Below are positions 33,226-51,936 of a stretch of DNA of 64,000 bases, piece after piece (within the stretch, counting starts at the first letter, position 1; each line of letters begins with the position of its first letter). Source of the DNA: Escherichia coli (GTDB lineage: Bacteria > Pseudomonadota > Gammaproteobacteria > Enterobacterales > Enterobacteriaceae); the NCBI GenBank assembly GCA_025336725.1, contig GCA_025336725.1_3647.1, one strand, 5' to 3'. The notes beneath the pieces were generated by a model. That model was not told the DNA's origin. It made no database searches and saw nothing but the letters and a program-made list of their open reading frames with translations. The position numbers and the translations under genes are program-made.

Positions 33226-35298
33226 TTATGAGAAGTCTGGCGGGACAACATCTTCTACATACCCTTTCAGAGCAACCTGCCCCATATGAAGCACGGTAGA
33301 ATCTCTGGCGGTAACAGTGATGCTGTCAGACATTACTTGCGGGTATGCCCACACATACTGTTTTACCTCAGGGTATCTATACTCTATGGTTGCCATGTTC
33401 CCGCAGATACATCTCCATAAAAATTCTTGGTAATTCCTGGTTGGGTCGTAGCCATATACCGGAGCAAGCTCTTTGCTAGGAACGAACCCTGCAAGGTATT
33501 GTATTTCAGACGGTTGCCAACCTAACTTAACGATAGGTATGTTTACAGACTCTTTTGCCTTTTCAATACCACCCTGCATCACCCAATCGTAGCACTCAGT
33601 GCAGAAGAAATCAAGAGCACCTGCTTCCTTTTTATATTGGTCAGCAAGGTTCAGCTTTTGCGTAAGCTCGGTTTCCATAATGGTCGGAAAAAACAGCAAA
33701 GCTGTCATCTGAGCCGATGCAGCGTGTGCTTTTATTGCCTTTGAAATAGCTGCAATACGAGCGCCAAGCTTACCACGACAAAATGCTACATACTTGTCAT
33801 AAACACCACCAGTTTTAGGATCGTCAATAGTCCCAATATCTAATGCATACTCGCCTGTCTCATCATAAAACGCCTGTTTTGTAGGGTAATCATAAATACA
33901 AGGTCTACGAGTATCGGTATTGTACCACCACCATGGTTCACCAACCTGCATAATCACTGGCAGGTTGTTTCTCATAGCGGCTGATGCAAAATTCTTAAAT
34001 ACTGCAGTAAGGAAATTCATACCCTCTTCAATGGTTGGAGACAGGAGGTAGCTACAAGGTGTATACCCTGTTTTAGCGTAGTTATCGTTCCAGTCTCTTT
34101 GGGTCCATTCCAACGGACAGGCATCGCTGAAAAGCTCAAAACTTACAGATTGCATAACGTCGAAGTTATGTCGTTTGGCATTGTACATAAAATCATCATG
34201 CCATTTATAAGCTGCAGCGTTTAGAGCTCCTGTTTTGTTTATAGACCATTGGGTTCCTGACCATGTGTAGTCATAATAATGGCTCATACCAACATAATGG
34301 TTTATGGTTCCTGTATAGCCCAGACGCTTGATATTGCTCAACACCCTTAAAGGGGATACGTTCCACATATCGTCATATGCGGTGCAGATCCCAACGTCAT
34401 GCTCTTTCACTTGAATATTGTTAAGTTGCATCATTTTCCAACCTGTGTCTGGCTGAAGCAGATCTAGGCGCAACTCACACTCTACATTTTCCGTTCTTGG
34501 GTCTGTGCTATTGCTTACCCAATCTTTAGGCATAAGCGGTATTAAAATCCTTCTCACCTGTCGAGGATCAACACCCATCATGTTGTTGTTCTGGTCCATC
34601 CCGACGCAGTCCTCGAAATCAATATGAATTTCTGCAACATTCTTATCCTCTGAGATGCTGACAGCATATTGAGCTAAAGGAACATAGATGATTGTGCCAT
34701 CAACAAGGTCTACAGTCATAATCATCTTTTCAGGGGTGGAGAAGTTGCTGGCATTAGTTATTGACATTCTGAACCAAAGCTTGGTGTTTCTCATCTCATA
34801 GTGATCATCAAATCCAATGCCGAAATGGTCATACTTGTCAACTGTTTCCCAAATGCACCCAGCCATGCCTCCATATGTTCTTGACACTAAACGGTTAATA
34901 CAGCAGTTATTATCCGCAACAATACAGGTGCTTTCAGTCTGCTGTGTGTTTGTAACCCAATATCTTGGGTGAAACATTCTCTCCTCAACGGTATCCCAAG
35001 ATATTCTGTCAAGATTCTCATCTGAAACTATTGTACATTTTGCTCTTTGTGTTCCAATCATAACCCCTTGGGAGTTTGATGAAAACTCCATAAAGAAGCT
35101 TCTTGGCAACCTGTTTGGCAATTTGTCAACAATTTCTACAGGAATCTCAATACTGGTTGCCCCAACCGGGATAGTTACATCGCCCTCAACATGATCATAA
35201 TCCCTACCTGGAACGGCAGTATCTTGAACTGTGCGATAATGAAACCGTGCAGCCATTGTAGAGTAATCACGGTAAGGTTTAAAAACAGCTATTGCCAT
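33226..35298 (-). CDS. tail protein with Calx-beta-like N-terminal domain (receptor-binding / enzymatic candidate)
   Basis: 690 aa; Calx-beta-like ..QDTAVPGRDYDHVEGDVTIPVGATSIEIPVEIVDKLPN..EF.. Confidence 0.4.
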   Translation of the reverse strand: MAIAVFKPYRDYSTMAARFHYRTVQDTAVPGRDYDHVEGDVTIPVGATSIEIPVEIVDKLPNRLPRSFFMEFSSNSQGVMIGTQRAKCTIVSDENLDRISWDTVEERMFHPRYWVTNTQQTESTCIVADNNCCINRLVSRTYGGMAGCIWETVDKYDHFGIGFDDHYEMRNTKLWFRMSITNASNFSTPEKMIMTVDLVDGTIIYVPLAQYAVSISEDKNVAEIHIDFEDCVGMDQNNNMMGVDPRQVRRILIPLMPKDWVSNSTDPRTENVECELRLDLLQPDTGWKMMQLNNIQVKEHDVGICTAYDDMWNVSPLRVLSNIKRLGYTGTINHYVGMSHYYDYTWSGTQWSINKTGALNAAAYKWHDDFMYNAKRHNFDVMQSVSFELFSDACPLEWTQRDWNDNYAKTGYTPCSYLLSPTIEEGMNFLTAVFKNFASAAMRNNLPVIMQVGEPWWWYNTDTRRPCIYDYPTKQAFYDETGEYALDIGTIDDPKTGGVYDKYVAFCRGKLGARIAAISKAIKAHAASAQMTALLFFPTIMETELTQKLNLADQYKKEAGALDFFCTECYDWVMQGGIEKAKESVNIPIVKLGWQPSEIQYLAGFVPSKELAPVYGYDPTRNYQEFLWRCICGNMATIEYRYPEVKQYVWAYPQVMSDSITVTARDSTVLHMGQVALKGYVEDVVPPDFS

Positions 35299-35984
35299 TA
35301 ACCCTCCTGTCTAGTTGCGTTTACTGTAATACTTTCACAATAAATAGTTGTGGTGTCCCAATCAGGTCTTACGTCAGGAACATACAGCAAAGTAGCCAGC
35401 CCACCAACTCCGAACTGGTTTTCTTCCCATACTGATCCGAAGCCAAGAGCTGTGGAGTCTCCTTCAAAACCAAAAGCTTGCCCTTGCGATTCTGTAAGAC
35501 GCAAATGACAAGGCAATGGCAGCATATCTAAGATCTGATCGATGGACTGCAATATGTCAAAGCAGGTTTTTCTAATGTTTATGTCAAATCTAAAGTTGTC
35601 ACCTTTCCACGTATCGAAATTATCTCTTCCGAACAATTGTCGCAAGGTTGAGATGACATCTTCACGAGTCCCGCCCCTCGATGCTGCTGCCTGCTGAATA
35701 ATTAGGGTAGCACGAAAATCAGCATCTGAAAGCCCATTCCGAAGAATACCGAGTTGATTACCAACTTCGTCAAGGTATCTTCCGCTGGCATTGTTAAGCA
35801 ATCTTCCTTCAGCTAAGCCTACCAGCATCTTATCAACATTCTCCAACCTTTTAAGGTACACGGTTAAGAATGTGACTAAATTAACCTTCTCAGCCAGAAA
35901 ATCTCCAGGTAGGTAGTCAAGACCTCCCTGAACAAAATCTGGCAGAGTGTGGATGTGGTTGACATCCGACTTAATCTCTGCCAT
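35298..35984 (-). CDS. baseplate protein (P2 gpI-like, tentative)
   Basis: 228 aa immediately downstream of baseplate J-like gene; called by position. Confidence 0.4.
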   Translation of the reverse strand: MAEIKSDVNHIHTLPDFVQGGLDYLPGDFLAEKVNLVTFLTVYLKRLENVDKMLVGLAEGRLLNNASGRYLDEVGNQLGILRNGLSDADFRATLIIQQAAASRGGTREDVISTLRQLFGRDNFDTWKGDNFRFDINIRKTCFDILQSIDQILDMLPLPCHLRLTESQGQAFGFEGDSTALGFGSVWEENQFGVGGLATLLYVPDVRPDWDTTTIYCESITVNATRQEG

Positions 35985-35995
35985 ATCTCGCCGCC

Positions 35996-37516
35996 TTAAA
36001 TAGTTTGTTGGAAAGTTATATTACTTTCGTCGAGGTCAAACACTTCGGTCATGTTTGCAACAACATCGTTTGTAGTGTAAGCTTCGTCAGAGGCTCCCAC
36101 AGGTTTAACTTGAATTACAAGTCTGTTAAATCTGCCTATTGACACAGCAGCCGATGCAGCGCCAACTAATTGGATATTATACAACGTGTCTGCAACATCC
36201 AAGCCGTTAACAACCTGCAAAAGAGCCTCTGTAATGGCATCTTTTTCGGTAGTGGAAAGTGCAGCACCCGAGTAAGTAATTCTCATATCCAAGCGGTAAG
36301 TGTTTGCCTTAGAATAATAAATCCTTTCAGTCTGACCGTCTGATGTGGTAATATCGTAGAAGATATTCCCATAAGTTCTGTTTGTGCAAGCTATGGTTTG
36401 ATACAGCGCTTGACAAATATCCTCTGTTGCACCACCAAACACTACCACTTGAAATTTGTAAGGTGGTATACCTTTCGCATCCGTTTTATCGGTGTTGTTA
36501 GAGAACACTCTTACTTTCTCAACACCTTTCACTTCGCTTACAGCGCTAAGGATTGCAGGGCGGGTAGCTTTAGATGTCAACTGTTTAGTGCTGGAGGCTC
36601 TTAGGCGGTACTCTGAGTCTTTCTCAACATCTCTGCCCTCATTGAATCTTTCTCGGTTGGTAAGCTTGATAAATCCGCTGGGGGTAGGTGACATTGTTGT
36701 TACAGTTTCTGCCTCTCTTGACAGCTCGCCTGCCTCATTAGCAATAACATCCAAAGTGATAGTTCTTTCCCCTACAATCGGGGATACTCTGAAATCTACT
36801 CTACTATTAAGTCCAACTTGATCAAGATTTGAATTGTACCCTATCCACAACGTTCCTGTCAACATATCGATCTGAATCAAATCGTCGTTCAACAGGGTTG
36901 TATTATCGACAATGAATTGCTTAATCTCTCCGTAAAAGCTTGGCAAATCAGAAGAGTCCAGAGACTTATCTGTTAAAACCAGACTTTTTGTTTTGATACT
37001 TCCATCTGTCTGGTTGGTAATTTGAAAGTTGTATTTCCCAATTCTTAGATCTGGAGCATTTATTCTGTGAGCAATAAGATTCCCTGCTACTTGCACATCA
37101 TTGCTAAGAACAAAGTTGCCACTATCCAGCGTATAAGTTTTGGAATCGTAAATCATATTGTACGGCACAGTTGTGTTGATCGTCAACTGGCAGGTACCTG
37201 ATGATTTAGAACGGCCTCTTCGGTAAATACCCTGTCTTCCAAGAAGTTCGTCTAGGTAAATACCTTCTGCCCCATACAGCGTCTGTGATGCGTATACAGA
37301 TGCTGCCATAAGAATAAGTTGATACTCTCGCTCGTTGAAGATAGTGGTCAGCTTATCCGCAACGGAGTTACTCTGTACGTTGAAGTTTTCGCCAAAAGCA
37401 CGGATCAGGCTTTGCTTAGTTTCAACGATTAGGTCATTTAGGGTTGGTATAACGAAACCAGCCTCTGTCAATCCATACTTAGCCACGTCACTCCTCCGGT
37501 ATGAAAATCTATACAA
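35996..37516 (-). CDS. baseplate wedge protein (Baseplate_J / P2 gpJ / Mu gp47-like)
   Basis: 506 aa; N-terminal ..LIRAFGENFNVQSNSVADKLTTIFNEREYQL..ASQTLYGAEGIYLDELL.. typical of baseplate J family. Confidence 0.55.
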   Translation of the reverse strand: MYRFSYRRSDVAKYGLTEAGFVIPTLNDLIVETKQSLIRAFGENFNVQSNSVADKLTTIFNEREYQLILMAASVYASQTLYGAEGIYLDELLGRQGIYRRGRSKSSGTCQLTINTTVPYNMIYDSKTYTLDSGNFVLSNDVQVAGNLIAHRINAPDLRIGKYNFQITNQTDGSIKTKSLVLTDKSLDSSDLPSFYGEIKQFIVDNTTLLNDDLIQIDMLTGTLWIGYNSNLDQVGLNSRVDFRVSPIVGERTITLDVIANEAGELSREAETVTTMSPTPSGFIKLTNRERFNEGRDVEKDSEYRLRASSTKQLTSKATRPAILSAVSEVKGVEKVRVFSNNTDKTDAKGIPPYKFQVVVFGGATEDICQALYQTIACTNRTYGNIFYDITTSDGQTERIYYSKANTYRLDMRITYSGAALSTTEKDAITEALLQVVNGLDVADTLYNIQLVGAASAAVSIGRFNRLVIQVKPVGASDEAYTTNDVVANMTEVFDLDESNITFQQTI

Positions 37517-37551
37517 GGTATTTTACCAAATTTTGTAACAATAGTCAATCT

Positions 37552-37584
37552 GAGCATAAAAATAAACCCCGCCGAAGCGGGGCT
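37552..37584 (-). terminator. rho-independent terminator
   Basis: Minus strand GCCCCGC-TTCG-GCGGGG hairpin followed by TTTATTTTTAT. Confidence 0.6.
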
Positions 37585-37591
37585 TTAAAGG

Positions 37592-38144
37592 TTAGTCGTG
37601 AGACTCGTTCCAAGGTCCCTGGAAGCTTGAGTTAGAACGGCTTACCACAACAGTAGGACAGGATATTGCGACCCCTGTTACAGAAGACGTTGACCATGGT
37701 GTGTAGATTTCAACAACAATATCTATGGTTTGTTCACCAAGACCTGTTATCCCTACCGCACACATGCCGTTGTTGTCGTTTCCGTATTTCTTACCTGCAA
37801 GGATTTGATGTCCGGCTATCCAAACGTTGAGCTGGGGTTTCGGCAAGAGTAGCCATTCAGTTTAAAGAAGAATGTTACGTTCTTACCCTGACCTGAAACG
37901 TTATCTACGTATCTCCACCTCCAACGGCAAACCCTTTGCTTGGGAGTTATATACTGGAGCACAATCCCCGTAAGTCCCTGTGTGTGCAACAATTGCACCG
38001 AACTGGTTAGCACGGATAACAGAAGCTTCTACACGACCACGGAAGGTATCTCCGGTTGCATCTATGGTGCCTCTAAAGCTACCATTATTGGCATAAATAT
38101 CCCCACGGAAGGTACCACTAGTGGCGTTAACTGCCCCCGTGAAG
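37592..38144 (-). pseudogene. frameshifted 3' continuation of lambda J-like gene (receptor-binding region in three frames)
   Basis: After stop at 38145 a -1 frame encodes ..GNFTGAVNATSGTFRGDIYANNGSFRGTIDATGDTFRG.. (lambda J C-terminal-like), then two more frame changes (ORFs 37816..38013, 37592..37846). Confidence 0.5.
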
Positions 38145-41100
38145 TTACCAGAACTGGCGTTGAGCGTTGCCTTTCACCCACACATCCATAAATTGGGGCG
38201 TGCCCGTTCTTGTTAATATACCAACCGTATTTATGGTACTTCCGTTGCCATCGTAGTTGTTTGACGAAATCTCCTGTGCAATCTTGGCTGAAGAGATCGT
38301 GCCATTTTCTATGAAGGCATCTTTCAAGAACGCTTGGTTGTTCTTGATTGCGAAAGCAAGGGTTGCTGTTCCGTTTCCAGGGTTATATACCGCAAAATTG
38401 TTTGCACTAACCATAAAGTAGGATTGAACTTGGCCCCCAGACCCTTCCATCCCCAACTGGATACCTGCAACATATTTATTCCCTGCGGAGTCCACCTGTA
38501 TTTTTGTGCCCCACTGAGCGTTTACTTTACCCTCTAAGTCGGTTACAGCCTTAGATGTTGTAGCTACTGCAGCCCTGATCTCGGACACATCTCCAACATC
38601 ATCAATGATCTCCTGCTTAGCAACAGCAAGTTCTTGACGAATAGCTGACGCTGTTCCGTTAATCAGGTCAACAGTGGCCTGATTAGTTTCAGAAATATTT
38701 GCAGACAAATCTTTCTTAGCTTGGGTAAGCTTATTATCCAACCCCGTAATATTGTTGGTGTTGGTTGTAATCTGCCCTTTAGCAGAGGTTAATTGTTCAG
38801 ATAAGGCTGCAGTTTTCTGATTCAGCAGGTCCGTTGTGGCCTTGTTGGTGGTAGAGATCAATGTATTGAGATCAGATTTAGTGGTGTTGATCTTGCCATC
38901 TAGAGTGGTGTAGTTTTTAGATACCGTGGCGTTAGTCTGGCTAATCTTCTGGTCAAGAGTCTGAGAAGTTCTATTCAGCAAATCCACAGTGGCCTGATTG
39001 GTGCTCAGAATGCTTGCATCCAGCTCAGATCTCTGAGTATTCAACTTACCTTCCAGGCTCTTATCTCCAGCCAGATATCCTTTTTCAACATCACCGATCT
39101 GCTCGGTTAGCTCACCTTGTGCAGCAACCAGTTTTTCATCCAACGCATCTGTTTTCTTGTTAAGAAGATCAGTGGTGGATTTGTTGGTTGTCTCAATCAA
39201 CGACGACAGTTTGGCACTCTCATTATTCAAGTTGTTGGTCAACTCACCTTTCGTTGCCGTCAGCTTATTGTCCAGTGCCTCGGTTTTCCGATTAAGGAGA
39301 TCTGTAGTCGTCTTATTGGTTGATACAATCAGAGAGTTCAGCTCAGAGCTTTCCTGTGCTAAAGCATCTTCCAACTCCCCCCTTGTTGAAACAATCTTCT
39401 CGTCCAAAGCTTCAGTTTTCTGATTTAGCAGATCGGTTGTAGCTTTGTTAGTGGTCTGGATTAGAGAAGTCAGCTTGCCACTTTCTTTAGAAAGATCATC
39501 TGCAAACTTGTTCTGAGTGGCTACCAGTTTCTGGTCTAGAGTGGTAAGCGTTCCATTAACGTCCTGGAAGTTGTCGTGGGTTTCTTGGATGAATATTCCA
39601 ACCCTATCCCCCAACTGAGCATACAGCTTGTCTACTCTAGAGAACTCACCTTCCATGTGGTCAAAAGCCTCGTCAACTCTACCATCCATGTACCTGTTAA
39701 GTTCTGTGACACGATTTTCAACCTCTTCAATAGAGGAATCCAAAGTGCTCATCAACTCTTTATAAGTTTCTGTCTTTTTGAATTCAGCATCTATCTGAGG
39801 CATCAAATCCTCGATAGAGGTGTAGCAGCGTGCAGCGCATTCTACAAACTGAGAGCTACCAAAAGCGTTTGTGGTTCGAATATACCAATAATAAACCTTA
39901 TCGTTCTGCAGGCCTTCAGATGTCCAAGTTGAACCAACACCCATACGGGTGGCGTTTGAAGTAACGGTTGCATCGCTGGTGTCGGGCAACCTTGTCATAC
40001 CAGATGTCCAAAAGTCATACTGGGTGCTTACACTTGCTAAATCCCTGCTGTGTGGAATCAAGGTGATAGCAAAGTATCCCTGCTTAACCTCTACAGAAAC
40101 AGGAGCTTCAGGTGCCTGAATGTTAAACTCGCAGTACGCTTCTGGAGATACACCACCTTTATAAGATGTTGCAACCACGGTTGCTGTGTATGATCCTTTG
40201 GTCAAGCCTTCTACTCGGACAAACTGCTCAACTGTCTGTGCTGTCCAAACAATCTCTCCGTTCTTTCTTACCTGCACAATATTTTGAGCGTAAGTTCCAA
40301 CGTTGTCCCAAGCCAAAACACCGTGAGTTACTTCCCCGGCTTGGAGAACGGAATACCTGAAGTTTTGCGGTTGAGCTACACCAGATGGAGATATCGGAAT
40401 ATCTACATTACCAGAGTCCGGAAGTTGTCCTGTGGCATCATTCCACTCTTTAGCATCTTGACGGAGTTTTACCTTGACACCACCCTTTTTAGTAAACTCC
40501 CATTCAAGAACCCTCATTTCTTGGCCCACTATACCAATACTTGGGAGGTTCATTGTAACGTAACGACCAGGTTTAAATTTAAAACCTCGCATATTGCAGG
40601 TGACTTCAATAATCCTGCCAGCTCTAGCGCGTCTTAAGAAGATTGCAGAAACACGCTGGGCTTGATAAGGGCTGGTAACAAAGCGATAGTCTATATCGAT
40701 TATCTTTCTTTCTCCATCCTTCTCTATCCACTCTGGGACAAACACTGATGGAAAATCTGTTTCAGAATATCCTTTGGTCGGGCTAGTGAATCTGCCAGTT
40801 ATTGTGTTGGATCTTTTGTCAAACGAGGCTTCCGGATAGATCTTAACCTCACCACAGACACAGTCCTCACTCAGTGTCATTGTTGCAGGGCCATAGTATG
40901 CACCAACCAGCAAACCATACTTACCAGCAACATAACTAAGATCTGCACCACAGGCTTTCAGCATTTCTGCCATAATACTTGCTGGGGCCTCATCCATGTC
41001 GAACTCACCGTTAATTGTGTAACGTCGCTCACTGGTTCCGTCAGCGTTTTTTACCGCCTCGTCGCATATGTTGGCAGCCTCCTTGAAGGACTCCCAGTTG

Positions 41101-41744: not shown

Positions 41745-42181
41745 TAATACCTCCAGACATCAACAACGATAGAATCTTTCATGTCGAACATAAAGACCCC
41801 TTTATCACCTTTCGCCCAAATCTGGTTGTTCCAGAACACACCAGCGGTGAGCCCGTTCAGACCTTCGAAAATAACAATATCTCCACGCTGAACCTGCTTA
41901 GGAGTGTCCAGTCGAGTCATAAAGAAATCAAAAATAGTAGGCAGGTGTGTAGTTTTGAAACGAAGCATGCACCATCTTTTGCTTTCCAACTCTGTTTTAT
42001 ACGTCCCTTCGAAGTTAGAAAGAAAATCTGTTCCGTATTGGGCATCAACACACTTAGCTGCAAAGGTGCAACAATCGTGGAATCCCCATTCAAAAGGTAT
42101 GGTGGCCTCCTCGTCAAACACTTTCCACAATCTTTCTTGCCAATCCACTAAACGAGGGTGTGTGCTCATTAAACCTCCCAA
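41744..42181 (-). CDS. tail tip assembly protein, NlpC/P60-like (lambda gpK-like)
   Basis: 145 aa; candidate catalytic Cys in ..HDCCTFAAKC..; immediately upstream of J-like gene. Confidence 0.5.
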   Translation of the reverse strand: MGGLMSTHPRLVDWQERLWKVFDEEATIPFEWGFHDCCTFAAKCVDAQYGTDFLSNFEGTYKTELESKRWCMLRFKTTHLPTIFDFFMTRLDTPKQVQRGDIVIFEGLNGLTAGVFWNNQIWAKGDKGVFMFDMKDSIVVDVWRY

Positions 42182-42735: not shown

Positions 42736-43312
42736 AGAAGTTGATAACTATATTATCACCTTTTTGCATAGCATCGACTTTTTGCTTAATTTTATAAATA
42801 TCTCTGATATGAAACCTACCCTTCGGGGATTGAGTTATTATCTTCATAGTGTCCCCTGCGGCAATAGGTTTTCTAAGTCTTGGAGATATGCTTATAACAG
42901 CAGACCCAACACCATCGCTACGCACTGGAGCTGTTACCACTTTCAATTCATCATTGACAGATATTTTATCCCCAGCTCTGGCTATGTCTCTGTTTGGCTC
43001 CCACCCAACCGTCCTCAAAAAATCATCGTTACCAGTAGGCCCAAGGGCGATTGGCTCATTAGCTGTTACTGAGTGACCGTAAGTTTTAATAAGAAAGATG
43101 TTTCCATCTTTATACACCTGATCAACAAAGCTCTTAAGCTCTAGCAACTGTGACTCGCTGATATTGGAAACCGTCAAAGTGCCTTTCCAGTTAGGTGTGG
43201 CATAGGTTACTTTTTGCGTTTTACCTGTAAACGGACTTTTAAACGTAACAATATCTGCCAGTAGCTCCAATCTAATATCTGGAAGGTATCTAGGCCTTTC
43301 CCATAAAAACAT
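42722..43312 (-). CDS. minor tail protein (lambda gpM-like N-terminal region, tentative)
   Basis: 196 aa; ..GTLTVSNISESQLLELKSFVDQ.. resembles lambda gpM ..YSVTLSVPREEATVLESFLEEHG.. Confidence 0.35.
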   Translation of the reverse strand: MFLWERPRYLPDIRLELLADIVTFKSPFTGKTQKVTYATPNWKGTLTVSNISESQLLELKSFVDQVYKDGNIFLIKTYGHSVTANEPIALGPTGNDDFLRTVGWEPNRDIARAGDKISVNDELKVVTAPVRSDGVGSAVISISPRLRKPIAAGDTMKIITQSPKGRFHIRDIYKIKQKVDAMQKGDNIVINFFEDF

Positions 43313-43373
43313 TGTGCCTCCAGGTTAAACAATCATGATAGTTATTTTACCAGATTTTGAGTTAATACGCAAT

Positions 43374-43403
43374 ACAAACAAAAAGCCCCCGCCGAAGCGA
43401 GGG
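43374..43403 (-). terminator. rho-independent terminator
   Basis: Minus strand GCCCTCGC-TTCG-GCGGGGGC followed by TTTTTGTTTG, just downstream of fiber gene stop. Confidence 0.6.
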
Positions 43404-43411
43404 CAAAACAG

Positions 43412-46400
43412 TTACTTCAGTTTCTCTTGCAACCCAGTAACAACCTCTGTCAATTTTTTAACCTGCTCCTCAAGGGCGGTTATTTTATCATCCTGTTCCC
43501 TGCAAACCTGGACAAGCAAGCCTGTAACAGCTGCGTAGTCAACGTTATAGAACCTTTCCTCGGTCATCAGAGGAATACCGTCTTGAGTAGGACCTTCTAT
43601 TTCCTTCCTTTTCACGAAAGACCCTACTGCCTCTGGCAATGCTTCCATAACCTCTTGAGCAATCACGCCTGCATAAGGCATACCATTCTCTTTCAAGGTG
43701 TAGGTATAGCCTTTCATCTTTCTAATTGCTTCCAGAGCGTTAGGTATGACCTCTATATTATCCTTCAGGTCACGGTCAGAACTTTGACTAACAGTGGTGC
43801 ACTCTACCGTGCCGTTGACAGCAAAATATCTTGATTTAGCCTCATCTGCCTTAGCTCCACAGTGGAATACCCAGCTGGCGGCTGTTGAGTTATCACTTAT
43901 CTGAAGCTCCAGCACACTCTTCCTATCCGCGCCATTACCCCAATAGAATAATCTAGCATTATCAGCAGGTAGGTTACCGTTGTTGCTGGGATCTTCAGAA
44001 CCACCAACATGAATGCATAGCTCTTTATCTGTTTCATCAACATTTCGATTCGGGCGTAACTGGATAGCTTTACCAGAATCATGCCGCCAAACTTCCCACA
44101 TATAAGTGGAGCCAGTTCTATCCATGTTACCAACACGCGTGTATCTGTCACCAAAACGTGTGATGTACTCCTGTACGCATCCTTTCGGATTGTTTGCATT
44201 GTTCTGGTAAACAATCAGAGTACCAGCGTACGGTGCTGGGTAATGTCTTTCAGATGTCGAGTTGGCATCAAGATGTTGGTGATAGATGCCCTCACAAGTA
44301 CCATCGTAAGTGTTTAGGTCTGTAGATTCAAGACCTGCACCTCTGTGTGAGAAGATCTTGTTCCACGGTCTGTGAGCACCACCCTCAATAGATCTGGTAT
44401 ACAACCTATCAAGGCGACCAGCTATCTGGAAAGCATAATTCCCAGAAAATGCCACAGACAGACCGCCAACAACCATCGAACCTTCCGGCCCGTTGACATT
44501 GCCAGCCATTATCTTGGAGGGGTTTGTATTACCAAACTGATTGTTCCAGTCAGCACCTGTCTGGCAAACATAGCCTCCCGGAGGGAAAAATGTGCCGTCT
44601 TTGTTGAAATTGTAGAACTTATGAGCTGTACCTACAACATCGCGAACGATAACTTGACCAGCTTCCGGAGTAGATCTGAACTCTGCCTGGCCTTGCAGTC
44701 TTGCACCATTACCACATTTAGAGGTAAAGGTGTTGTTGATCAGATCCTCTGTTCCTTCCGATGCAGCCTGGAACCCTGCATTAGAGAACAGTGCTTTTCG
44801 AGTAGTCTGACTACCTGGGCAGATGTAGTTAAGACCGTTGCACCATAACTCTGTCAGGCCAAACTCTGTTTTATTGGACAGGAAATATCTGTCAGAAGAC
44901 CCACGATACATCCACTGATTGGTGTAGAAACCTGTTACACCATTAAATTCAGCCAGAGGTCGAGTGTTTGTTACATTGTCACCTTTGATTGCTAGATTCA
45001 AGTCAGCAGATGCTAGAGGTGCACAGAATTTAACACCGTCTTGGTTGTTTGTTACATTGCCAACCTGCCAGTCTTCCTCTCTTGTTGACACCTCTATTAC
45101 GTCAGCGCTGGCATACACTGTTACAGGGAAGGCACGTGCCTCCACATAGAACGCAACATACTCTTGTTTACCCCTTGTTGGAGCAACGCACCCAAGTATC
45201 GCCTTCTCATTCTGGTAGAAATTTATCGACCCGGTAAAGAAGTCACCACGATCAGTCCAGCCACCAGTTCTGTAGTGGCACTGCAGTGTAGCACAGTTCA
45301 TAGGATCGTTGCCAGAAGAAGATCTGGTAACGATGGTTAAATCTGTCCCGATTGTTGGCGCATGGTTAGGATCGGTTCTGACAATAATCGGATAATACTT
45401 GCCATCCTGCATCGCTGCAGTTCTAGGCAGGTTTATATATGGTCTGACACCTGCTGCAAGAGGGATTCTGAATTGTGCCTGGGCATCTCCCACAGTCCTA
45501 GCACTGGTGCCACCGCAACCTATCGGCAAAGGTTCCCATTTAGCCTTGCGGTTGTTATAAACACCCCATTCCAGAGTACCATTACCGGATTCATCCATCC
45601 CTCCATCCCAGATTACCATTTTTGCGGCTTTCTTGGATCCCCAGAACCCTCTTTCTGCTCCTGAACTACGGATCCATTCTCCAAGACCCCAGTTTGTCAG
45701 CTGACCAGTAAGATCCCCAACCTGCATGTATTTAGGGCAGTCTAACACGCCATCTTCGCGGAAACCTAAATATCTATGAGTTTCAGATCCTTTTGCGCCT
45801 TTGTGCAGGTGGAGTGTCAACCAAGCCTTATTGTCGTTTCTTACCTCAGAGTAGATCCTATACCCATGCTCAAGGACACCGTCAGCGCTGTATTTGTCCC
45901 CGTTAACAATACCTGATGCTGACTTAACATCTCCAGAGTATTGAGCTAAGTAAAGGTGCCCGAAGGCTGGTGAGTTGTTTTTACCAAGGCCGATATGAGA
46001 TCTGAAGGTATCATCGTTACGAGGTCTGACCATCGGCTGCCATGCAGTCCACTGATTTGTGTTGGCCTGATAGGTTCTCAAATACCAAACATCTACGTTA
46101 GAGAATGGATAGTATTCCTGACGACAACCTGTACCGCCGTTAGCGTTGTTCTGCCAAACAATCAAGTGACCAGCACCAGAACCTGCAGGGTAACCATTTG
46201 CCTCAGTTGCATAAGCAGTCATCGGCTGGTAGTATATACCATCCTGATTACCAGTCAAGTTATTGATATTGAAATTTGGCTCAAGGGCTGCACGTTGCTT
46301 ATAGAAAGCACCGATATTGGTACGGATTCCAGCGGCATCTCTAGCCCCTGTGCCGCCCTGCTCTATAGCAAGAGGCTGCCAAGAAGCTGTTTGTTGGTTC

Positions 46401-47221
46401 CACATACCCCAACGGCCTGTTGCATCAAGCTGCAAGTACCCTGCCGTGTTTAAATCATCTCCAGCACGGATAACTGTTCTTGTTGGGTTGTTTGCCTCCA
46501 GGCGTTTAAATTCGTCACGAAGTGCTATTCTTTTTGTTGTTGCTACACCGTTGGTTACTGCAATGGTATACATGGCTCCAGAGGTAGCGCCACGGAAAAT
46601 GCCATCAACAGTTGTAGTATCACGACGAGATACCACACCGTTCAGAAATTTTTCACCAGCCGCTTCAGAAGGGTAATTAGTAGTTCTTCCCTCTTCAATA
46701 ACTGCAGGACCAACAAAGTTGACAAGGTGAATAACATCGCCTACAGTATGCACTGTGCCAAAATCTACCCGCTGTGCAAGTGCTTTAGCATCGTTGGCTG
46801 TCTGAACAGTAACATCCATTACATCCTGGACAGACTGCCCTTCGGCTGTCATGATCATAGATGCGCCAATGGTAGACTCCAGCTCCTCCCTTAAGGACGG
46901 ATCTGTATATACCATCCACGCAGCGTCAGTAATCCCACCGTCAGAATATGGTGAAGACAGTGCAGGGACAGTGTGTGGAAATTCGCCTTTCCAACGCAGG
47001 TATAGATCTTCCTCTTCGAAGTAGGCAAAATCCATTGGGCCGTTTAACTTACCACCTTCCTTAAAGGAGATTACATGAGAAACAGTCCCATCCACATGGA
47101 CAACATCGCCAATTTTTACACGACGGGTCAGGTCTGGTTGTTGAACAACCAGGTAATCATCCTCTGTCACTGCGGTAGTGGCAGGAAGAGATTCAATTCT
47201 GACAACTTTAATATCAGCCAT
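43412..47221 (-). CDS. long tail fiber with C-terminal intramolecular chaperone (peptidase S74-like) domain
   Basis: 1269 aa; C-terminus ..SDRDLKDNIEVIPNALEAIRKMKGYTYTLKENGMPYAGVIAQEV..; N-terminal domain shared with ORF 49856..50524. Confidence 0.7.
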   Translation of the reverse strand: MADIKVVRIESLPATTAVTEDDYLVVQQPDLTRRVKIGDVVHVDGTVSHVISFKEGGKLNGPMDFAYFEEEDLYLRWKGEFPHTVPALSSPYSDGGITDAAWMVYTDPSLREELESTIGASMIMTAEGQSVQDVMDVTVQTANDAKALAQRVDFGTVHTVGDVIHLVNFVGPAVIEEGRTTNYPSEAAGEKFLNGVVSRRDTTTVDGIFRGATSGAMYTIAVTNGVATTKRIALRDEFKRLEANNPTRTVIRAGDDLNTAGYLQLDATGRWGMWNQQTASWQPLAIEQGGTGARDAAGIRTNIGAFYKQRAALEPNFNINNLTGNQDGIYYQPMTAYATEANGYPAGSGAGHLIVWQNNANGGTGCRQEYYPFSNVDVWYLRTYQANTNQWTAWQPMVRPRNDDTFRSHIGLGKNNSPAFGHLYLAQYSGDVKSASGIVNGDKYSADGVLEHGYRIYSEVRNDNKAWLTLHLHKGAKGSETHRYLGFREDGVLDCPKYMQVGDLTGQLTNWGLGEWIRSSGAERGFWGSKKAAKMVIWDGGMDESGNGTLEWGVYNNRKAKWEPLPIGCGGTSARTVGDAQAQFRIPLAAGVRPYINLPRTAAMQDGKYYPIIVRTDPNHAPTIGTDLTIVTRSSSGNDPMNCATLQCHYRTGGWTDRGDFFTGSINFYQNEKAILGCVAPTRGKQEYVAFYVEARAFPVTVYASADVIEVSTREEDWQVGNVTNNQDGVKFCAPLASADLNLAIKGDNVTNTRPLAEFNGVTGFYTNQWMYRGSSDRYFLSNKTEFGLTELWCNGLNYICPGSQTTRKALFSNAGFQAASEGTEDLINNTFTSKCGNGARLQGQAEFRSTPEAGQVIVRDVVGTAHKFYNFNKDGTFFPPGGYVCQTGADWNNQFGNTNPSKIMAGNVNGPEGSMVVGGLSVAFSGNYAFQIAGRLDRLYTRSIEGGAHRPWNKIFSHRGAGLESTDLNTYDGTCEGIYHQHLDANSTSERHYPAPYAGTLIVYQNNANNPKGCVQEYITRFGDRYTRVGNMDRTGSTYMWEVWRHDSGKAIQLRPNRNVDETDKELCIHVGGSEDPSNNGNLPADNARLFYWGNGADRKSVLELQISDNSTAASWVFHCGAKADEAKSRYFAVNGTVECTTVSQSSDRDLKDNIEVIPNALEAIRKMKGYTYTLKENGMPYAGVIAQEVMEALPEAVGSFVKRKEIEGPTQDGIPLMTEERFYNVDYAAVTGLLVQVCREQDDKITALEEQVKKLTEVVTGLQEKLK

Positions 47222-47256
47222 TCTTTCTCCTGAAAGGGGGCAAACAGCCCCCTATG

Positions 47257-49854
47257 TTAAAGGTACAATCCACGGTATTGAGCATAAAGTCCCAGACCGC
47301 GAAGGATTTCGCCAGAGTGATAGCCTACCGGATCAGAAACTGCCCAGCAGCCGTTTAAAACATTATCCCCGTTAATGAAGTGGTGCTTTTGCAGTAACTT
47401 CACACAGGCTTCTACAACAATATCTATTTGGGGTATTGTCTCTGAATACCCGCACAGACCTAGCCAGCAGCAACCTGCAAGCCATTCACCAACCACCCAC
47501 ATCCTGTCTCCTCTGTCTTGATAAGAATATCCCCCAGAGGTGTTAAAGTCTGTAGGCAGATTTCCTGAATGAGATGACTGGAATCTGTTGAGGAACCATG
47601 CCCATTTCTGGCAGAACAGGAATAGTCTTTCATCAACAGGTTCTTTATGTTTCTTGAGCTCATATATTGTTCGGCACGCAGCAACAAAAGATCTTGACTG
47701 GAGTTTAGAGTTATCTACCATCTCCCACCAACCAGTCAATCCTTCATTACCTCTCTGCCATACATAACGTGAGGCAACTGGACCCTCTGTCTTAAATGTA
47801 TTATTATACCAGACTTGAGCGTCATACAGAAAGCCTATTGTATTTGACAATCTATGGCGATCTATGTTTTCTGCACCCATGCAGTAGACTGCTGGGTATT
47901 GCATACCAGGGTATGGCCAATTTGGCTTTTCCTCTAAGAGATAGTTTTCCTTATCTATCACCTTTCCGGCAGGGAACACACCCGGTGTGTGCCTGTATGC
48001 ACCTTGCTTGTAGTTTCTGACATAGCAATCACCAACCTTAGCGGTTGATTCTGTCTTGCTTGCCATCCACACGCTAAACCATATTAGATAAGCATCCCTA
48101 TCTGCAATATAGAACTGCGGCAGCGTGTTTACGCAGTACAGATCAAACAAGCCATTACCTATCTGCCTGTCGCTTAGACTGAAATCTACAGAGGTGAGCC
48201 CTTTAGGATTAGCAAAGAAAGGTTTAATCTCTTCTTCGGTGTGATGAGGTTGTGTCGGATCTAGTTTGAAATCTCCTAGAGTAAGAGTTTCTGTTATCCA
48301 TTGTCCATTAGTGGCATATAGATCAGCATACCATAACCACCTATCTTTGTCAAGAAATTTGACCCTTACCATCTCATCATCTGACCGATAAGTTACTGAA
48401 TTTAAAGAAATCTCTCTCCCAAAATTGAAAGTTACTTTACCTCTTGCTATATTACAACGGGTGAAGTTGTCAGAGTGGTTGTAAATGTCGGTATCATACT
48501 GCATACTAACACTAGCGCCACCGCTTACGACAATGTTTTCCTCTTTAGGTAAGAGATACGGATTACCGTCTTTACCAACTACCTCTACGAAATCAGTGAC
48601 CTTGGCAACTGTCTCTGTTACCTCTGACCCTCCAAAAGGGACCCCTATCCTATACTGTTTTTTGTTATTGTTGCCATCATTAAGGATGAAATGTGGCTGG
48701 AACAGAACTCCTTCTCCTCCGAAATTCATAACAATTTCAGCATCTCTGCCGATCTTGTATGTGGTCCCTTTTTGGATTATTTCACAAGGCTGGCGTGCGT
48801 TCATTCTAAAATTGATATACCCGTCGCTGTCCCTACTCATGACAGGAACTGTTCCTGCAACGAGACAGGCTCCATCTGTGAACGGTGCCTTAATCAACGT
48901 GGTCTTTCTAAACAACTTGTCGTAGGCATTTATATCACTGAAATTAAGCAACTTGTTGTAAGACTGTTTAAACGCGGTGTAATACTTTTCCTCACCTGTC
49001 AAGGTGTAGAGTTGATAACAAGCGTCGCACCACATTTCTTCCCCGTCCAACTCTGGGGCTTGATTATCTGCAACCACATTTATAGGATTTACAATTACAG
49101 GGGATCCAGCAGGTATCACCGATCCACCCTGCTCTTGTGGCAATCTCACACAGTAGGTTACCTTGTGGCTGCCTGTAACACCCTTATCCTGCAGTTGGAT
49201 TGTGCCGAACTCTGCAGACGTATGACCACTATCGGCTATGCTACCGTTGGCCCAATAGCGGTTACCGTCCCATGCTATATACCACTCAACCCACCAACTT
49301 AATCCAGATGTTGTCCAATTTGGGTTAGCATCTGTGCCGCCGTAAACATCAGAGTCTACAGTGTTTCTTCCTAACACACCGTTATACGCTTGGAATGCCT
49401 TGTCCAGGTATTCCCCCCATGTTGGAGATCCAGCTGGGATTTTTCCTCTACCGTTGGTAAAAGACACCACCACATCTTTAAACCCACCGTGTGATGGGAC
49501 CCCATCTGTGGATAGAGGGTAGTGGGACAATCTTTGCATTTTACTTTCTACGGCATATGCACCCAGAAGATGACTATTGTACGCTTCCCAAGCATCTTTT
49601 GCCCTATCCAGATAGAAATAGCTTTTCGATGCCCTGTATGCTTCAATGTATCCCAGAATCAACACAGCTTGGGACTCATGCATTGCCCAATCATTATTTA
49701 TCTTACTCCCTGACCAACCTGACGCTATAAGTCCATCTTGGTTTACCAGCTTGTTCTGCGTAGGAAGATTGGTAATACCTGTGTTGTTATCGAGGCACTT
49801 CCTGTGCCCCTCAATCATCTGGAATACGTTATCAATGTTGTGTTGAATACGCAT
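47257..49854 (-). CDS. tailspike-like protein, possible polysaccharide-degrading domain
   Basis: 865 aa; weak resemblance to (alpha/alpha)6-barrel glycoside hydrolases; call is tentative. Confidence 0.35.
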   Translation of the reverse strand: MRIQHNIDNVFQMIEGHRKCLDNNTGITNLPTQNKLVNQDGLIASGWSGSKINNDWAMHESQAVLILGYIEAYRASKSYFYLDRAKDAWEAYNSHLLGAYAVESKMQRLSHYPLSTDGVPSHGGFKDVVVSFTNGRGKIPAGSPTWGEYLDKAFQAYNGVLGRNTVDSDVYGGTDANPNWTTSGLSWWVEWYIAWDGNRYWANGSIADSGHTSAEFGTIQLQDKGVTGSHKVTYCVRLPQEQGGSVIPAGSPVIVNPINVVADNQAPELDGEEMWCDACYQLYTLTGEEKYYTAFKQSYNKLLNFSDINAYDKLFRKTTLIKAPFTDGACLVAGTVPVMSRDSDGYINFRMNARQPCEIIQKGTTYKIGRDAEIVMNFGGEGVLFQPHFILNDGNNNKKQYRIGVPFGGSEVTETVAKVTDFVEVVGKDGNPYLLPKEENIVVSGGASVSMQYDTDIYNHSDNFTRCNIARGKVTFNFGREISLNSVTYRSDDEMVRVKFLDKDRWLWYADLYATNGQWITETLTLGDFKLDPTQPHHTEEEIKPFFANPKGLTSVDFSLSDRQIGNGLFDLYCVNTLPQFYIADRDAYLIWFSVWMASKTESTAKVGDCYVRNYKQGAYRHTPGVFPAGKVIDKENYLLEEKPNWPYPGMQYPAVYCMGAENIDRHRLSNTIGFLYDAQVWYNNTFKTEGPVASRYVWQRGNEGLTGWWEMVDNSKLQSRSFVAACRTIYELKKHKEPVDERLFLFCQKWAWFLNRFQSSHSGNLPTDFNTSGGYSYQDRGDRMWVVGEWLAGCCWLGLCGYSETIPQIDIVVEACVKLLQKHHFINGDNVLNGCWAVSDPVGYHSGEILRGLGLYAQYRGLYL

Positions 49855-49855
49855 C

Positions 49856-50524
49856 TTAGATAGCTCCTGCGATAATCAGTGCTCCGTACCAAGTTAACCC
49901 GTTGTCGTAGGTTTCCAACTTGAAAATGTCTGTTGCACCAGCTGTAAATGTCAGGATAGGATCTCTTCCGTATGCCCATTTAACATTATCAGGCCAATAG
50001 ACTTTGTTACCGCCAGAGGTCTGAGTAATGCATACGGTTATAGTTCTCGCCACACCTTCAAGACCTTCTGTTTGATTTTCAAAAGAGATTGTGGTGTTTG
50101 AAGTTAGTCGAACTTTAAAAGTGTCAGCAACTTCAAGATCCATATCAAGCTGACCACCAATAGATCCGTAATCAACTATTCTGCCAGAAGAAGTTGCAGC
50201 AAGCTCACCAAAAACAGACCAGGCTTTTGCAGACACACCCCCAGCACCCTCTACAGTGGAGTCTGGGAGGATTATTTTAGGATAATCCCCGTTCCACGTG
50301 TAGTAGCGCTTAGTTTCTGGGTCATAAGCAAAGTCCTTCTTGCTCTTAAGATAACCACCCTCTGTGAAATAGACTATCTTAGTAATGCTAAGATCGTTGA
50401 CAACATCGTCAATCTTAGCCTTTCTTGTCCCATCAGTCTGGTTGACAACCAAGAAGTCATCACTCAGGACTGTTTCTGCATCTTCAAGATCTGGAATTGG
50501 TATTGTAGGATAAGCTACAGCCAT
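49856..50524 (-). CDS. tail fiber anchor-domain protein
   Basis: 222 aa; N-terminus ..DDFLVVNQTDGTRKAKIDDVV..FTEGGYL..DFAY.. homologous to N-terminus of the 1269-aa fiber. Confidence 0.45.
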   Translation of the reverse strand: MAVAYPTIPIPDLEDAETVLSDDFLVVNQTDGTRKAKIDDVVNDLSITKIVYFTEGGYLKSKKDFAYDPETKRYYTWNGDYPKIILPDSTVEGAGGVSAKAWSVFGELAATSSGRIVDYGSIGGQLDMDLEVADTFKVRLTSNTTISFENQTEGLEGVARTITVCITQTSGGNKVYWPDNVKWAYGRDPILTFTAGATDIFKLETYDNGLTWYGALIIAGAI

Positions 50525-50533
50525 GATTTCTCC

Positions 50534-51118
50534 TTAGTTAACATCAATAGCACGACCAGACTGGTTGGCAATAGCCTCATCATTGGAGGTAGCAATAACA
50601 CCAGAGTATTCGCGCTCATCTGGAGCAAGCGTCCAGGTATTGCGGTTAATGGTTTGTTCTGCCTCAGTCATCAGCAGATCTTTATCCTGAGTCAACAGAG
50701 AGCCTACAGGGATCGGGTTTTCCATCTCAGGACCAGCATACTGGTTCCACCATGTGGCATCTCCGGTTCTAGGCAATCTGAAGTTGATCAGGTAGTACAG
50801 TTTATTAGCCCACTTAATCCAACCCTCATCATCACAGAGAGAGGTTGTCCCAGAATCAGGCTGTGGGTAGGTGAACTGATCAAGACCTACGAAAGCCAGC
50901 CTTACAATCTCGTTCTCTTTGGTAACAACCTCAAAGAACGCTTGGTATGTTCTAGATCTTCGATCCATGGTAGACTGGAAGTTTATGATGTTTAGCACAT
51001 CCGGCTCTTGTCTTGCCACTTCCATAATCTTGTTATCAAGAACAGTCTTCATGACCTTCTTGCTGAGAAAGTCCATATAAGGGAGCAAACAGCTCGTCAG
51101 CAGCCAGCTCCCTTCCAC
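50534..51118 (-). CDS. baseplate wedge protein gp25/W-like, C-terminal part (frame-split)
   Basis: ORF-track GTG start without RBS; ..KIMEVARQEPDVLNIINF.. downstream of N-part in another frame. Confidence 0.4.
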   Translation of the reverse strand: MEGSWLLTSCLLPYMDFLSKKVMKTVLDNKIMEVARQEPDVLNIINFQSTMDRRSRTYQAFFEVVTKENEIVRLAFVGLDQFTYPQPDSGTTSLCDDEGWIKWANKLYYLINFRLPRTGDATWWNQYAGPEMENPIPVGSLLTQDKDLLMTEAEQTINRNTWTLAPDEREYSGVIATSNDEAIANQSGRAIDVN

Positions 51119-51246
51119 GTATTAAACCTCATCCACAAGCGCTGGCGCAGACTTACCTGGTTTGAATCTATCAACTCAAGACCTTTGTCTATCGCCAAAT
51201 CGCCTGTCTGCGGGTCCATCAATATGTCACTATAAAGCGTAGCCAT
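51097..51246 (-). CDS. baseplate wedge protein gp25/W-like, N-terminal part (49 aa ORF)
   Basis: ATG at 51246 with AGGG RBS right after gpV-like stop; MATLYSDILMDPQTGDLAIDKGLELIDSNQVSLRQRLWMRFNTWKG matches gp25/W N-terminal pattern. Confidence 0.4.
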   Translation of the reverse strand: MATLYSDILMDPQTGDLAIDKGLELIDSNQVSLRQRLWMRFNTWKGAGC

Positions 51247-51258
51247 GAAAGCCCTCTA

Positions 51259-51936
51259 TTAGTGCGGTCCACTTGTCTCGCCATCAGGGCAAGAGTGGGT
51301 ATGACCTTTATATTCTGCATAGAATGAATCCAAATCCACACCTGCAGCAGTTATAATTCTACCAGACGGGTCTATTGTGGCACCATTCATTCTGATATTT
51401 CCATCCACAGCAGCTCGCAAATTGGCAGCCCCGTTAGTAAAAGAGAACTCCCCGCTGCTGTCGCACCGTAGTGTCCCACCAGGTGTTTGAAGCTCAAAAT
51501 CTCCAGAAGGTGTCAGTTTAAAATAAACCCTATCATTCCATAACTCTACGTTATCAGGATCGATCTGTAAAGCGTTTGAGTCTGAATGAACAGAGGTTAT
51601 TGCCCACCCAGGAAACAGACCGTGAGTTTGTTGATCGTCGTTATTGTTTTCATTTCTCTCTGAAAACTGCAATCCTACAACATCTCCAGCCTTAATAGGG
51701 AGTGTTAACCTTGCCTTTCCGCTGTTTGCAGACATCACCTGAATTGGAACATCATAGATAAGGGGATACCTCTCTACATCCCCGTCATCAAACATGGTTT
51801 CGGCTATTGGTTGCACGGCTGCAGAGGGGATACTATAATCTACACTGACAACTCTGGCCCTAATACTGGTGTGGTAGTCCCTCATTATTTTTTCTATAAA
51901 GGATCTTACAGCAGCATCTTTCCTGTTTATTGCCAT
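51259..51936 (-). CDS. baseplate central spike protein (P2 gpV / Mu gp45-like)
   Basis: 225 aa; C-terminal ..HTHSCPDGETSGPH resembles P2 gpV apex motif. Confidence 0.7.
   Translation of the reverse strand: MAINRKDAAVRSFIEKIMRDYHTSIRARVVSVDYSIPSAAVQPIAETMFDDGDVERYPLIYDVPIQVMSANSGKARLTLPIKAGDVVGLQFSERNENNNDDQQTHGLFPGWAITSVHSDSNALQIDPDNVELWNDRVYFKLTPSGDFELQTPGGTLRCDSSGEFSFTNGAANLRAAVDGNIRMNGATIDPSGRIITAAGVDLDSFYAEYKGHTHSCPDGETSGPH

Follow-up and report, generated by a model that had tools for sequence, protein, structure and literature searches.

The window analysed here is a 64,000-nucleotide stretch of DNA filed under Escherichia coli that, by its sequence, belongs to an rV5-like Vequintavirus, an E. 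coli phage with a contractile tail. Its baseplate locus (positions 35298-51936) contains, between the genes for the sheath initiator and a baseplate wedge protein, a cassette of four genes encoding a distal tail protein (Dit) and L-like, K-like and J-like proteins, all related to components of siphovirus tail tips. We put at roughly 0.6 the probability that this cassette is a siphovirus tip module that was acquired by Vequintavirus and now forms an extra receptor-binding fibre complex. Homology, synteny, a restricted distribution, regulatory flanks, purifying selection and a few virion peptides of J are established by the data presented here. An annotation made earlier from the letters of the window alone (the sequence-only reading) had described the locus as a mosaic in which P2/Mu-like baseplate genes are interrupted by a lambda-like M-L-K-J set. 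The mosaic, in which a simple contractile baseplate is combined with a tip set of siphovirus type, is upheld, as are the gene order and coordinates given for it. All genes of the locus are on the minus strand, as is every tail gene of the window.

Matches to the region were found in 126 phage records, and in 110 of these the match spans at least 80% of the region. Nucleotide identities are mostly 90-95% (92-94% in the top rows), and the matches are mostly Escherichia Vequintavirus (rV5-like) myoviruses. Eighteen MG0656xx 'Campylobacter phage' records are ~94% identical to 35298-51936; C. jejuni is listed as the host in 16, a label that looks doubtful. GenBank records already label the genes in question 'tip attachment protein J', 'distal tail protein' and 'tail tip assembly protein'. 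The literature search found no paper recognising the complete module, its Queuovirinae origin or its location in the virion, and an O177 phage 'proteomics' paper contains no mass spectrometry (MS) data.

Tip-type proteins encoded by the cassette

The largest gene of the cassette (37595..41744) encodes a J-like hub/fibre protein, of which 1199 amino acids (aa) lie in an intact open reading frame (ORF, 38145-41744); a further C-terminal ~190 aa run on to ~37595 through frameshifts, giving a full-length J of ~1380 aa. The protein matched the Pfam families Phage_Tail_Tip (8e-36), Ig_J_second (4e-31) and Ig_J (2.5e-5) and the central tail fiber J family phrog_31 (1.6e-158). Against the Protein Data Bank (PDB) it matched lambda J (8iyk, 2.7e-28) and, through its N-terminus, a T5-like pb3 (8hqz, 2.5e-4). 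These matches identify it, at the level of sequence, as a true homologue of lambda J and T5 pb3. Residues 48-713 display 52-55% identity to J of the Queuovirinae siphoviruses 9g and ChristophMerian. Residues 650-1055 (window ~38580-39795) form a proline-free stalk of ~400 aa, rich in T, L, D, K, E and N, in which the element 'SLIxTTNKATTDLLNxKTxALDEKL' is repeated about six times at the protein level, four copies having the strict pattern; Tandem Repeats Finder detected no DNA-level repeats in the stalk. The stalk exceeds the matching part of 9g J by ~290 aa and that of the Vequintavirus phage EduardKellenberger by ~100 aa, and its length is thus allele-dependent. Residues 1-650 are 98.8% identical, compared with 76% for residues 1-1059, and the distal two-thirds of the protein vary among genomes, a pattern that would be expected for a receptor-binding protein. 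The BASEL paper reported that among these phages only the largest fibre genes vary. In the virion MS of rV5, which identified 19 proteins overall, the J homologue gp37 was represented by four peptides and five spectra (4.2% coverage), and the same paper recorded a tail-component COG domain in gp37 (PMC3606486). One of the four peptides falls in the hub region of the window J, and the MS data provide weak support for the presence of J in the virion. Counted along the rV5 genes, the counterparts of the four cassette proteins would be gp37-gp40.

The first gene of the cassette (42722..43312), the product of which was called M-like in the sequence-only reading, encodes a 196-aa protein that matched the distal tail protein family phrog_1302 (5e-50). 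A Dit family profile comprising 125 sequences from an exhaustive search matched the Dit of DT57C (8hqz_H, 2.4e-6) and T5 pb9 (1e-3) over ~170-185 of its 200 positions, and so over nearly its full length; seven-sequence profiles gave only a marginal Dit match (E = 0.26). These profile matches point to a Dit of the T5 pb9 type. Comparison with lambda gpM (109 aa) by hhalign returned a probability of 0.5%, and hhalign likewise gave no match between this protein and the Dit_like tube initiator of the phage itself. The second gene (42169..42720) encodes the L-like protein, a putative tube-like N-terminal component of the hub (183 aa; ORF of 188 aa, 42169-42735) that matched phrog_2048 (9e-68). Its AlphaFold2 (AF2) model, of moderate confidence (pLDDT 77), had T5 pb3 as its best Foldseek match (1e-6), followed by a JBD30 baseplate chain (1.4e-5), lambda gpL (8iyk_L, 7e-5, TM 0.53), and a virion chain of a gene transfer agent (GTA, 6tba_7A) and a T1 tail-tip chain, both at 2e-4. 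The model is consistent with the fold of lambda gpL and the T5 pb3 N-terminus. No sequence or profile similarity to lambda gpL accompanied the structural match, hhalign being negative even with a 91-sequence profile, and 21 of the 91 L-like family members matched PF09931, a baseplate hub N-terminal attachment domain. Pfam returned no match for the Dit or L-like proteins of the window, single-sequence phmmer searches of the PDB with the three small cassette proteins returned none, and protein homologue searches with single-sequence queries returned near-identical matches only.

The third gene (41744..42169) encodes the K-like protein (141 aa; ORF of 145 aa, 41744-42181), a member of the Pfam family DUF6950 (3.9e-33). 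Its AF2 model (pLDDT 80, moderate confidence) matched MepS and bacterial peptidases (1.3e-4 to 2.4e-4, TM 0.58) and, more weakly, LytE (1.5e-2) and PlyPy, and is thus predicted to adopt the papain-like NlpC/P60 (C40) fold. A D-C motif, including the Cys, is invariant across 10 homologues. In the alignment as read, the position after the RGD-hydrophobic strand, where the catalytic His is expected, is occupied by T, A, V, L or M, and no His is conserved; peptidase activity of the K-like protein is therefore doubtful, and its role is probably in assembly. Against lambda gpK, hhalign returned a 25-residue motif match (probability 13%) in which the D-C motifs align. The M-, L-, K- and J-like calls of the sequence-only reading, which had been set beforehand as its test, all survived these profile or fold comparisons, at the level of family or fold.

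The sequence-only reading had also termed the set lambda-like, which is accurate in part. The J-like protein is a true homologue of lambda J, with which it has the Ig_J, Ig_J_second and Phage_Tail_Tip domains in common, and the order Dit, hub piece, NlpC/P60-type protein and J recalls lambda gpM-gpL-gpK-gpI-gpJ; in addition, the L-like model matches the fold of gpL (7e-5) and the D-C motif of gpK aligns with that of the K-like protein. However, there is no gpI, as no ORF lies between the K-like and J-like genes, and the K-like protein is a single NlpC/P60-fold domain of 141 aa with only a motif-level match to gpK. Lambda gpK is a two-domain protein (MPN and NlpC/P60). The Dit of the window is a 196-aa, T5 pb9-like protein, compared with 109 aa for gpM, and sequence similarity to gpM and gpL is undetectable. 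Nor does the set adjoin a tape measure gene, as a lambda-like placement would entail, and its true relatives are 9g/Queuovirinae, T5 and GTA-type modules. In T5 and DT57C, pb9 is matched by the Dit profile, while pb3 is matched both by the L-like model, as its best hit, and by the J N-terminus; the L-like and J-like parts thus appear fused in T5 pb3 (949 aa). The T5 set lacks a DUF6950 gene and its tip is central and axial. In the Rhodobacter GTA the L-like model matches the 292-aa chain 6tba_7A (2e-4), which is presumably g13, the similarity being at fold level or weak at profile level only; we take the GTA genes g12-g15 to have the same order, namely Dit, hub, peptidase and large J-like protein. 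The GTA complex caps a siphovirus-type tail, in contrast to the myovirus setting of the window. A lambda-J-like protein is also found outside siphoviruses in DEV, an N4-like podovirus, in which gp56 carries a receptor-binding protein (PMC12892993). DEV gp56 is axial, seals the tail and is partnered by two unrelated genes, whereas the window J is partnered by Dit, L and K. On the strength of these comparisons the cassette is better described as 9g/T5/GTA-like than as lambda-like.

The closest parallel is the tip module of Queuovirinae (9g/Nonagvirus and Seuratvirus), with further occurrences in PY54, Lokivirus and siphoviruses of Vibrio and Roseobacter; it comprises the same four genes in the same order as the window. 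The proteins are of similar size (196, ~190 and ~135-145 aa, then J), and the alignment of J covers the hub region from one end to the other. After their tape measure gene, 9g and ChristophMerian have genes encoding 196, 194 and 130-138 aa and then J, and tblastn showed that the window cassette is collinear with these, with identities of 31, 37-39, 45-47 and 52-55% for Dit, L, K and J, respectively. Outside Vequintavirus, the L-like protein (~40% identity) and the J hub region (50-57%) are closest to those of Queuovirinae siphoviruses, among them 9g, slur01, SE1Kor and ChristophMerian; PY54 and phages of Vibrio, Pseudomonas, Acinetobacter and Roseobacter are more distantly related. PY54, Roseobacter CRP-701, Vibrio phage 1268 and Acinetobacter IMEAB3 likewise encode the module after their tape measure gene, and Dit genes lie directly after the tape measure gene in the siphoviruses examined. 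PY54 and IMEAB3 each have one extra gene inside the module, in IMEAB3 a large gene between those for Dit and the L-like protein. The Queuovirinae module is thus encoded after a tape measure gene and serves as the tip of a non-contractile tail, while that of the window lies in a myovirus baseplate operon after a fibre gene. The window J is further distinguished from Queuovirinae J, mainly by an extra stalk of ~300-400 aa, a putative coiled coil, between the Ig domains and the tip domain. Matches in the phage collection were bimodal, with identities of either at least 95% (rV5-like phages, some under other host names) or less than 60%. The sampled records below 60% were genomes of 26-84 kb or, in the case of the T5-like phages found with the J hub as query, of 105-129 kb, and, where classified, were all siphoviruses. 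A search for related loci in viral contigs returned only rV5-like and Queuovirinae loci.

The contractile baseplate and the insertion site

The contractile nature of the tail, which the sequence-only reading had assumed, is borne out by genes for a sheath (59740-61116, DUF3383) and a tail tube (59256-59729, KPP10_Orf10), both named as such in the annotation of relatives, and by electron microscopy (EM) of rV5, in which a contracted sheath was observed (PMC3606486). In annotated relatives the gene order is sheath, tube, chaperone, tape measure, tube initiator, small protein, hub, spike and a 238-aa baseplate protein, followed by several 'lateral tail fiber' genes, a 'cell wall hydrolase', two baseplate proteins and further fibres. 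The phage of the window has a complete central set of its own, consisting of a Dit_like tube initiator, a Pam3_gp18 plug, a hub (phrog_196) and a spike. The spike (51259..51936), of the phi92 gp138/P2 gpV type, matched the Pfam spike N-domain PF18352 (2e-9); it is 48-61% identical to the spikes of GAP31, Iguana and phiTE and holds the same position in the locus. The gp25/W-like sheath initiator (50534..51247; ORF 50534-51118) matched phrog_4233 (1.4e-68) and phrog_120, and its 238-aa orthologues match PF10934 (Sheath_initiator). Beyond the cassette lie a wedge protein of the P2 gpJ/T4 gp6 class (35996..37486; ORF 35996-37516), which matched Pfam Baseplate_J (2.3e-9) and, in the PDB, phiTE Wedge 2 protein (1.9e-158) and phi92 gp145 (3e-55), and a second wedge protein of 228 aa in the gpI position (35298..35984; phrog_4056 baseplate protein, 1.8e-103). 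The latter is 50-64% identical to the product of the gene after the wedge gene in GAP31, Iguana and phiTE. The PDB set searched contained baseplate chains from phiTE and phi92 and none from Vequintavirus. Because the tube initiator, plug, hub, spike, sheath initiator, two wedge proteins, sheath and tube were all found, the baseplate is assigned to the simple contractile class of P2, Mu, Pam3 and phiTE. Those of these window proteins that make up the baseplate, from the tube initiator to the two wedge proteins, have homologues in the baseplates of phiTE (PDB 9cuy), phi92 (21vq) and Pam3. The Dit-L-K-J set, by contrast, is present in the window but absent from the tail region of phiTE and from the phi92-like phage alia. 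The model of the phiTE baseplate consists of nine proteins with no J complex, and in it the homologues of the window's own hub and spike set form a spike-tipped hub.

The junction between the sheath initiator and wedge genes differs among related phages. In phiTE (Certrevirus) it contains only a terminator and no genes; GAP31 (Seunavirus) has an adaptor and two large fibre/tail proteins, the Klebsiella phage Iguana its own fibre and tail genes, and alia (Justusliebigvirus, phi92-like) an adaptor and three large fibre/tail proteins. In Vequintavirus, as represented by the window, an adaptor and two large fibre/tail proteins are followed by the cassette, and Dit-L-K-J is absent from the tail regions of the four others, each from a related myovirus genus. 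The absence of the cassette from other myoviruses is based on these four relatives and on sampled rows of two tblastn searches. As the two flanking genes are adjacent in phiTE and separated by different gene sets in the other genera, the junction is a modular insertion site at which the four-gene cassette alone is Vequintavirus-specific. The sequence-only reading thus saw correctly that the baseplate cluster is interrupted and that an inserted block is present at this point, but the block consists of two layers, of which only Dit-L-K-J is wholly specific to Vequintavirus. The cassette follows a fibre gene and a terminator, and the tape measure gene, part of the myovirus set, lies ~11 kb upstream.

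Both borders of the cassette are marked by the same regulatory unit. At the upstream border (43343..43404) a GC hairpin with a TTCG loop and a T-run is followed by the promoter-like motif TGGTAAAATA, and a second copy of the hairpin terminator and TGGTAAAATA lies at the downstream border, just before the wedge gene (37519..37585). The two best terminator-like hairpins of the region are located exactly at these borders. The motif TGGTAAAATA occurs four times in the window, on the minus strand at 37519-37528, 43343-43352, 57493-57502 and 62657-62666, compared with 0.12 occurrences expected by chance; each copy is on the coding strand just upstream of a tail or neck gene, and in two cases a GC hairpin with a TTCG loop comes before it. 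GAP31 and Iguana have an almost identical unit ahead of their wedge gene. The hairpin and TGGTAAAATA likely constitute a late promoter/terminator unit of this phage group. Since the unit is found at the cassette borders and before the wedge gene of sister genera, the cassette would possess its own copy of the phage's late regulatory unit. Two proteins of the flanking baseplate carry C-terminal extensions in all cassette-bearing lineages that are absent from GAP31, Iguana and alia, one of 33 aa on the sheath initiator (50534-50635) and one of ~17-20 aa on the second wedge protein (35298-35360). In phiTE the C-terminus of the sheath initiator grips a fibre, and the extensions are possible docking sites for an extra fibre complex.

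The ratio of non-synonymous to synonymous substitution (dN/dS), calculated with EduardKellenberger (L001) as the reference, was 0.024 for Dit, 0.000 for L, 0.020 for K and 0.025 for the J hub, compared with 0.010-0.029 for the hub, spike and wedge genes. By this measure, purifying selection on the cassette is as strong as that on core baseplate genes. Divergent Vequintavirus-like contigs, in which the K-like protein is 57-60% identical and synonymous sites are saturated, retain all four genes in place.

Probable location and role of the J complex

We propose that the four-gene tip module was acquired horizontally from a 9g/Queuovirinae-like siphovirus and was inserted between the sheath initiator and wedge genes in the baseplate operon of Vequintavirus, a site of fibre genes in related phages, where it would be transcribed late from its own copy of the terminator/promoter unit. 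The J hub would be trimeric and probably capped by the L-like protein and a Dit ring, lengthened by the coiled-coil stalk of ~300-400 aa, with a variable receptor-binding domain at its end. The phage retains a full tube initiator, plug, hub and spike of its own, and the J complex would therefore be an additional receptor-binding fibre at the periphery of the baseplate and not a DNA-conducting tip; the location at the tail tip suggested by the sequence-only reading is not supported. Whether the complete tip, consisting of the Dit ring, gpL-like cap and J hub trimer, assembles without a tube and is mounted outside the contractile baseplate as a receptor-binding organelle is more speculative, and we regard this version as possible but on balance doubtful. 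Docking may involve the extra C-terminal residues of the sheath initiator and of the second wedge protein, in which case binding of J to a receptor could act directly on the sheath trigger.

Several points weigh against this proposal. A Dit ring and closed hub normally need a tape measure and tube on which to assemble and would here have to dock laterally, and MS support for J is thin (five spectra, 4.2% coverage). The window J is frame-shifted together with three essential tail genes, for which sequence error is a more likely cause than biology. The cryo-EM maps published for two Vequintavirus phages show no more than three resolved proximal fibres and one unassigned density, and the account of those three fibres names no J-like fibre (PMC12143355). 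That study also presented a model of a Vequintavirinae fibre the N-terminus of which is 'central-fibre-like', and the fitting of this fibre into the maps was not reported (PMC12143355); the modelled fibre is probably the J-like protein described here. For the Vequintavirus baseplates of Bas49 and Bas54, maps are available as EMD-51868 and EMD-51869.

Alternatively, only J might be present in the virion, as a plain trimeric fibre, with Dit, L and K acting as assembly or folding helpers that are not built in. The rV5 paper names in its text only J among cassette virion proteins, it is hard to see what a hexameric Dit ring would do in the absence of a tube, and the lack of a conserved His at the expected catalytic position in the K-like family fits a non-enzymatic helper. 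Set against this, Dit and L (dN/dS 0.024 and 0.000) are as strongly constrained as J and the core baseplate and are homologous over their full length to structural proteins of T5, lambda and the GTA, while a failure to detect small low-copy proteins by MS that found only 19 proteins would be uninformative; a helper role for all three is, in our estimation, unlikely. Placing the J complex instead on the tail axis, below or replacing the spike in a hybrid injection apparatus, would agree with the axial position of the J/pb3 hub in structurally solved homologous systems, including the DEV podovirus. The arrangement is highly improbable given that the phage's own tube initiator, plug, hub and spike are complete and 48-61% identical to those of cassette-free relatives, that in the phiTE structure the same proteins form a spike-tipped hub, and that the cassette has no tape measure of its own.

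With respect to origin, the cassette could be ancestral to the whole rV5-like group and lost in other genera, and such losses are plausible at a junction that is variable in every genus examined. However, this would require at least four independent losses (Seunavirus, Iguana-like phages, Justusliebigvirus and Certrevirus) in place of one gain, and the module follows the tape measure gene in the siphoviruses examined. In addition, the identity of the J hub to Queuovirinae J (52-57%) is roughly that seen between Vequintavirus core proteins and their counterparts in sister genera. Ancestral presence is consequently very unlikely. The frame-shifted C-terminus of the window J might also be taken as the mark of a functionless passenger or decaying remnant, but frameshifts are likewise found in the tape measure, tube initiator and sheath initiator, which points to sequence errors; all four cassette genes are intact in more than 100 relatives with dN/dS of at most 0.025, and the cassette has a dedicated late promoter motif. 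Of all the explanations considered, that of a passenger is hardly credible.

Acquisition of the module as an extra receptor-binding complex, the reading favoured here, would represent a rare case in which a whole multi-protein tail substructure has moved between tail architectures, and would belong with the modular exchange of receptor-binding tail parts. The rV5-like group ranks among the E. coli phages that are isolated most often and has members in use in therapy cocktails, and which genes build which of their fibres is unclear in the literature (PMC8594841; PMC11510089). Recognition that one gene block corresponds to an entire siphovirus tip module with a traceable donor lineage provides a concrete structural hypothesis for some of these fibre genes. 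The sheath-initiator/wedge junction would also offer a natural site for inserting receptor-binding modules when engineering these phages.

Neighbouring genes and other features of the window

Three genes precede the cassette at the junction. The first encodes a putative fibre adaptor of 222 aa (49856..50524; Pfam Tail_spike_N, 3e-10; phrog_7760 tail fiber protein), homologues of which hold the same place in GAP31 and alia. It is followed by the gene for an 865-aa tail protein resembling phi92 gp141 (47257..49854; phrog_2871, E-value 0), the positional counterparts of which in GAP31 and alia are 34-35% identical to it; both this protein and the adaptor thus have homologues at this junction in Seunavirus and Justusliebigvirus. 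The third encodes a 1269-aa fibre (43412..47221) with Tail_spike_N and a self-cleaving chaperone domain (Peptidase_S74). This is a variable allele, with 88% aa identity to EduardKellenberger compared with at least 98% for neighbouring genes, and it resembles sister genera only in its N-terminal ~100-200 aa. Just downstream of the second wedge gene lies the gene for a 690-aa fibre (33226-35298, minus strand) with Calx-beta, NCTSP_N and TIM-barrel_NCTSP domains (3.8e-80); the NCTSP Pfam families take their name from a non-contractile tail sheath protein. The Vequintavirus 690-aa fibre has been tied in the literature to N4 gp65 and recognition of the ECA/NGR glycan.

Four tail genes of the window have disrupted frames. 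The large J-like and gp25-like genes reported by the sequence-only reading are present, but the J-like ORF is shortened by ~6 frame-shifting insertions (37595-38240) and the gp25-like sheath initiator has lost its N-terminus through indels at 51084-51109 relative to EduardKellenberger. Indels at 53791-53817 split the tube initiator into ORFs 53793-54218 and 53333-53878, and indels at 54265-55466 split the tape measure into 55415-56662 and 54638-55099. As all four tail genes are essential in relatives, the frameshifts are probably sequencing or assembly errors and not marks of pseudogenes. A reading of the frameshifts as decay of the cassette was considered and rejected, three essential tail genes in the same window being equally disrupted.

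An insertion of 1.65 kb (57545-59193), absent from EduardKellenberger, separates the tail tube and tail chaperone genes and encodes a 412-aa HNH/homing endonuclease (ORF 57524-58762, minus strand; phrog_559, 1.3e-88). Finally, GC skew is positive (+0.06 to +0.16) at 16001-22000 and negative across the rest of the window, and this change of sign suggests a block of genes on the opposite strand at 16001-22000.

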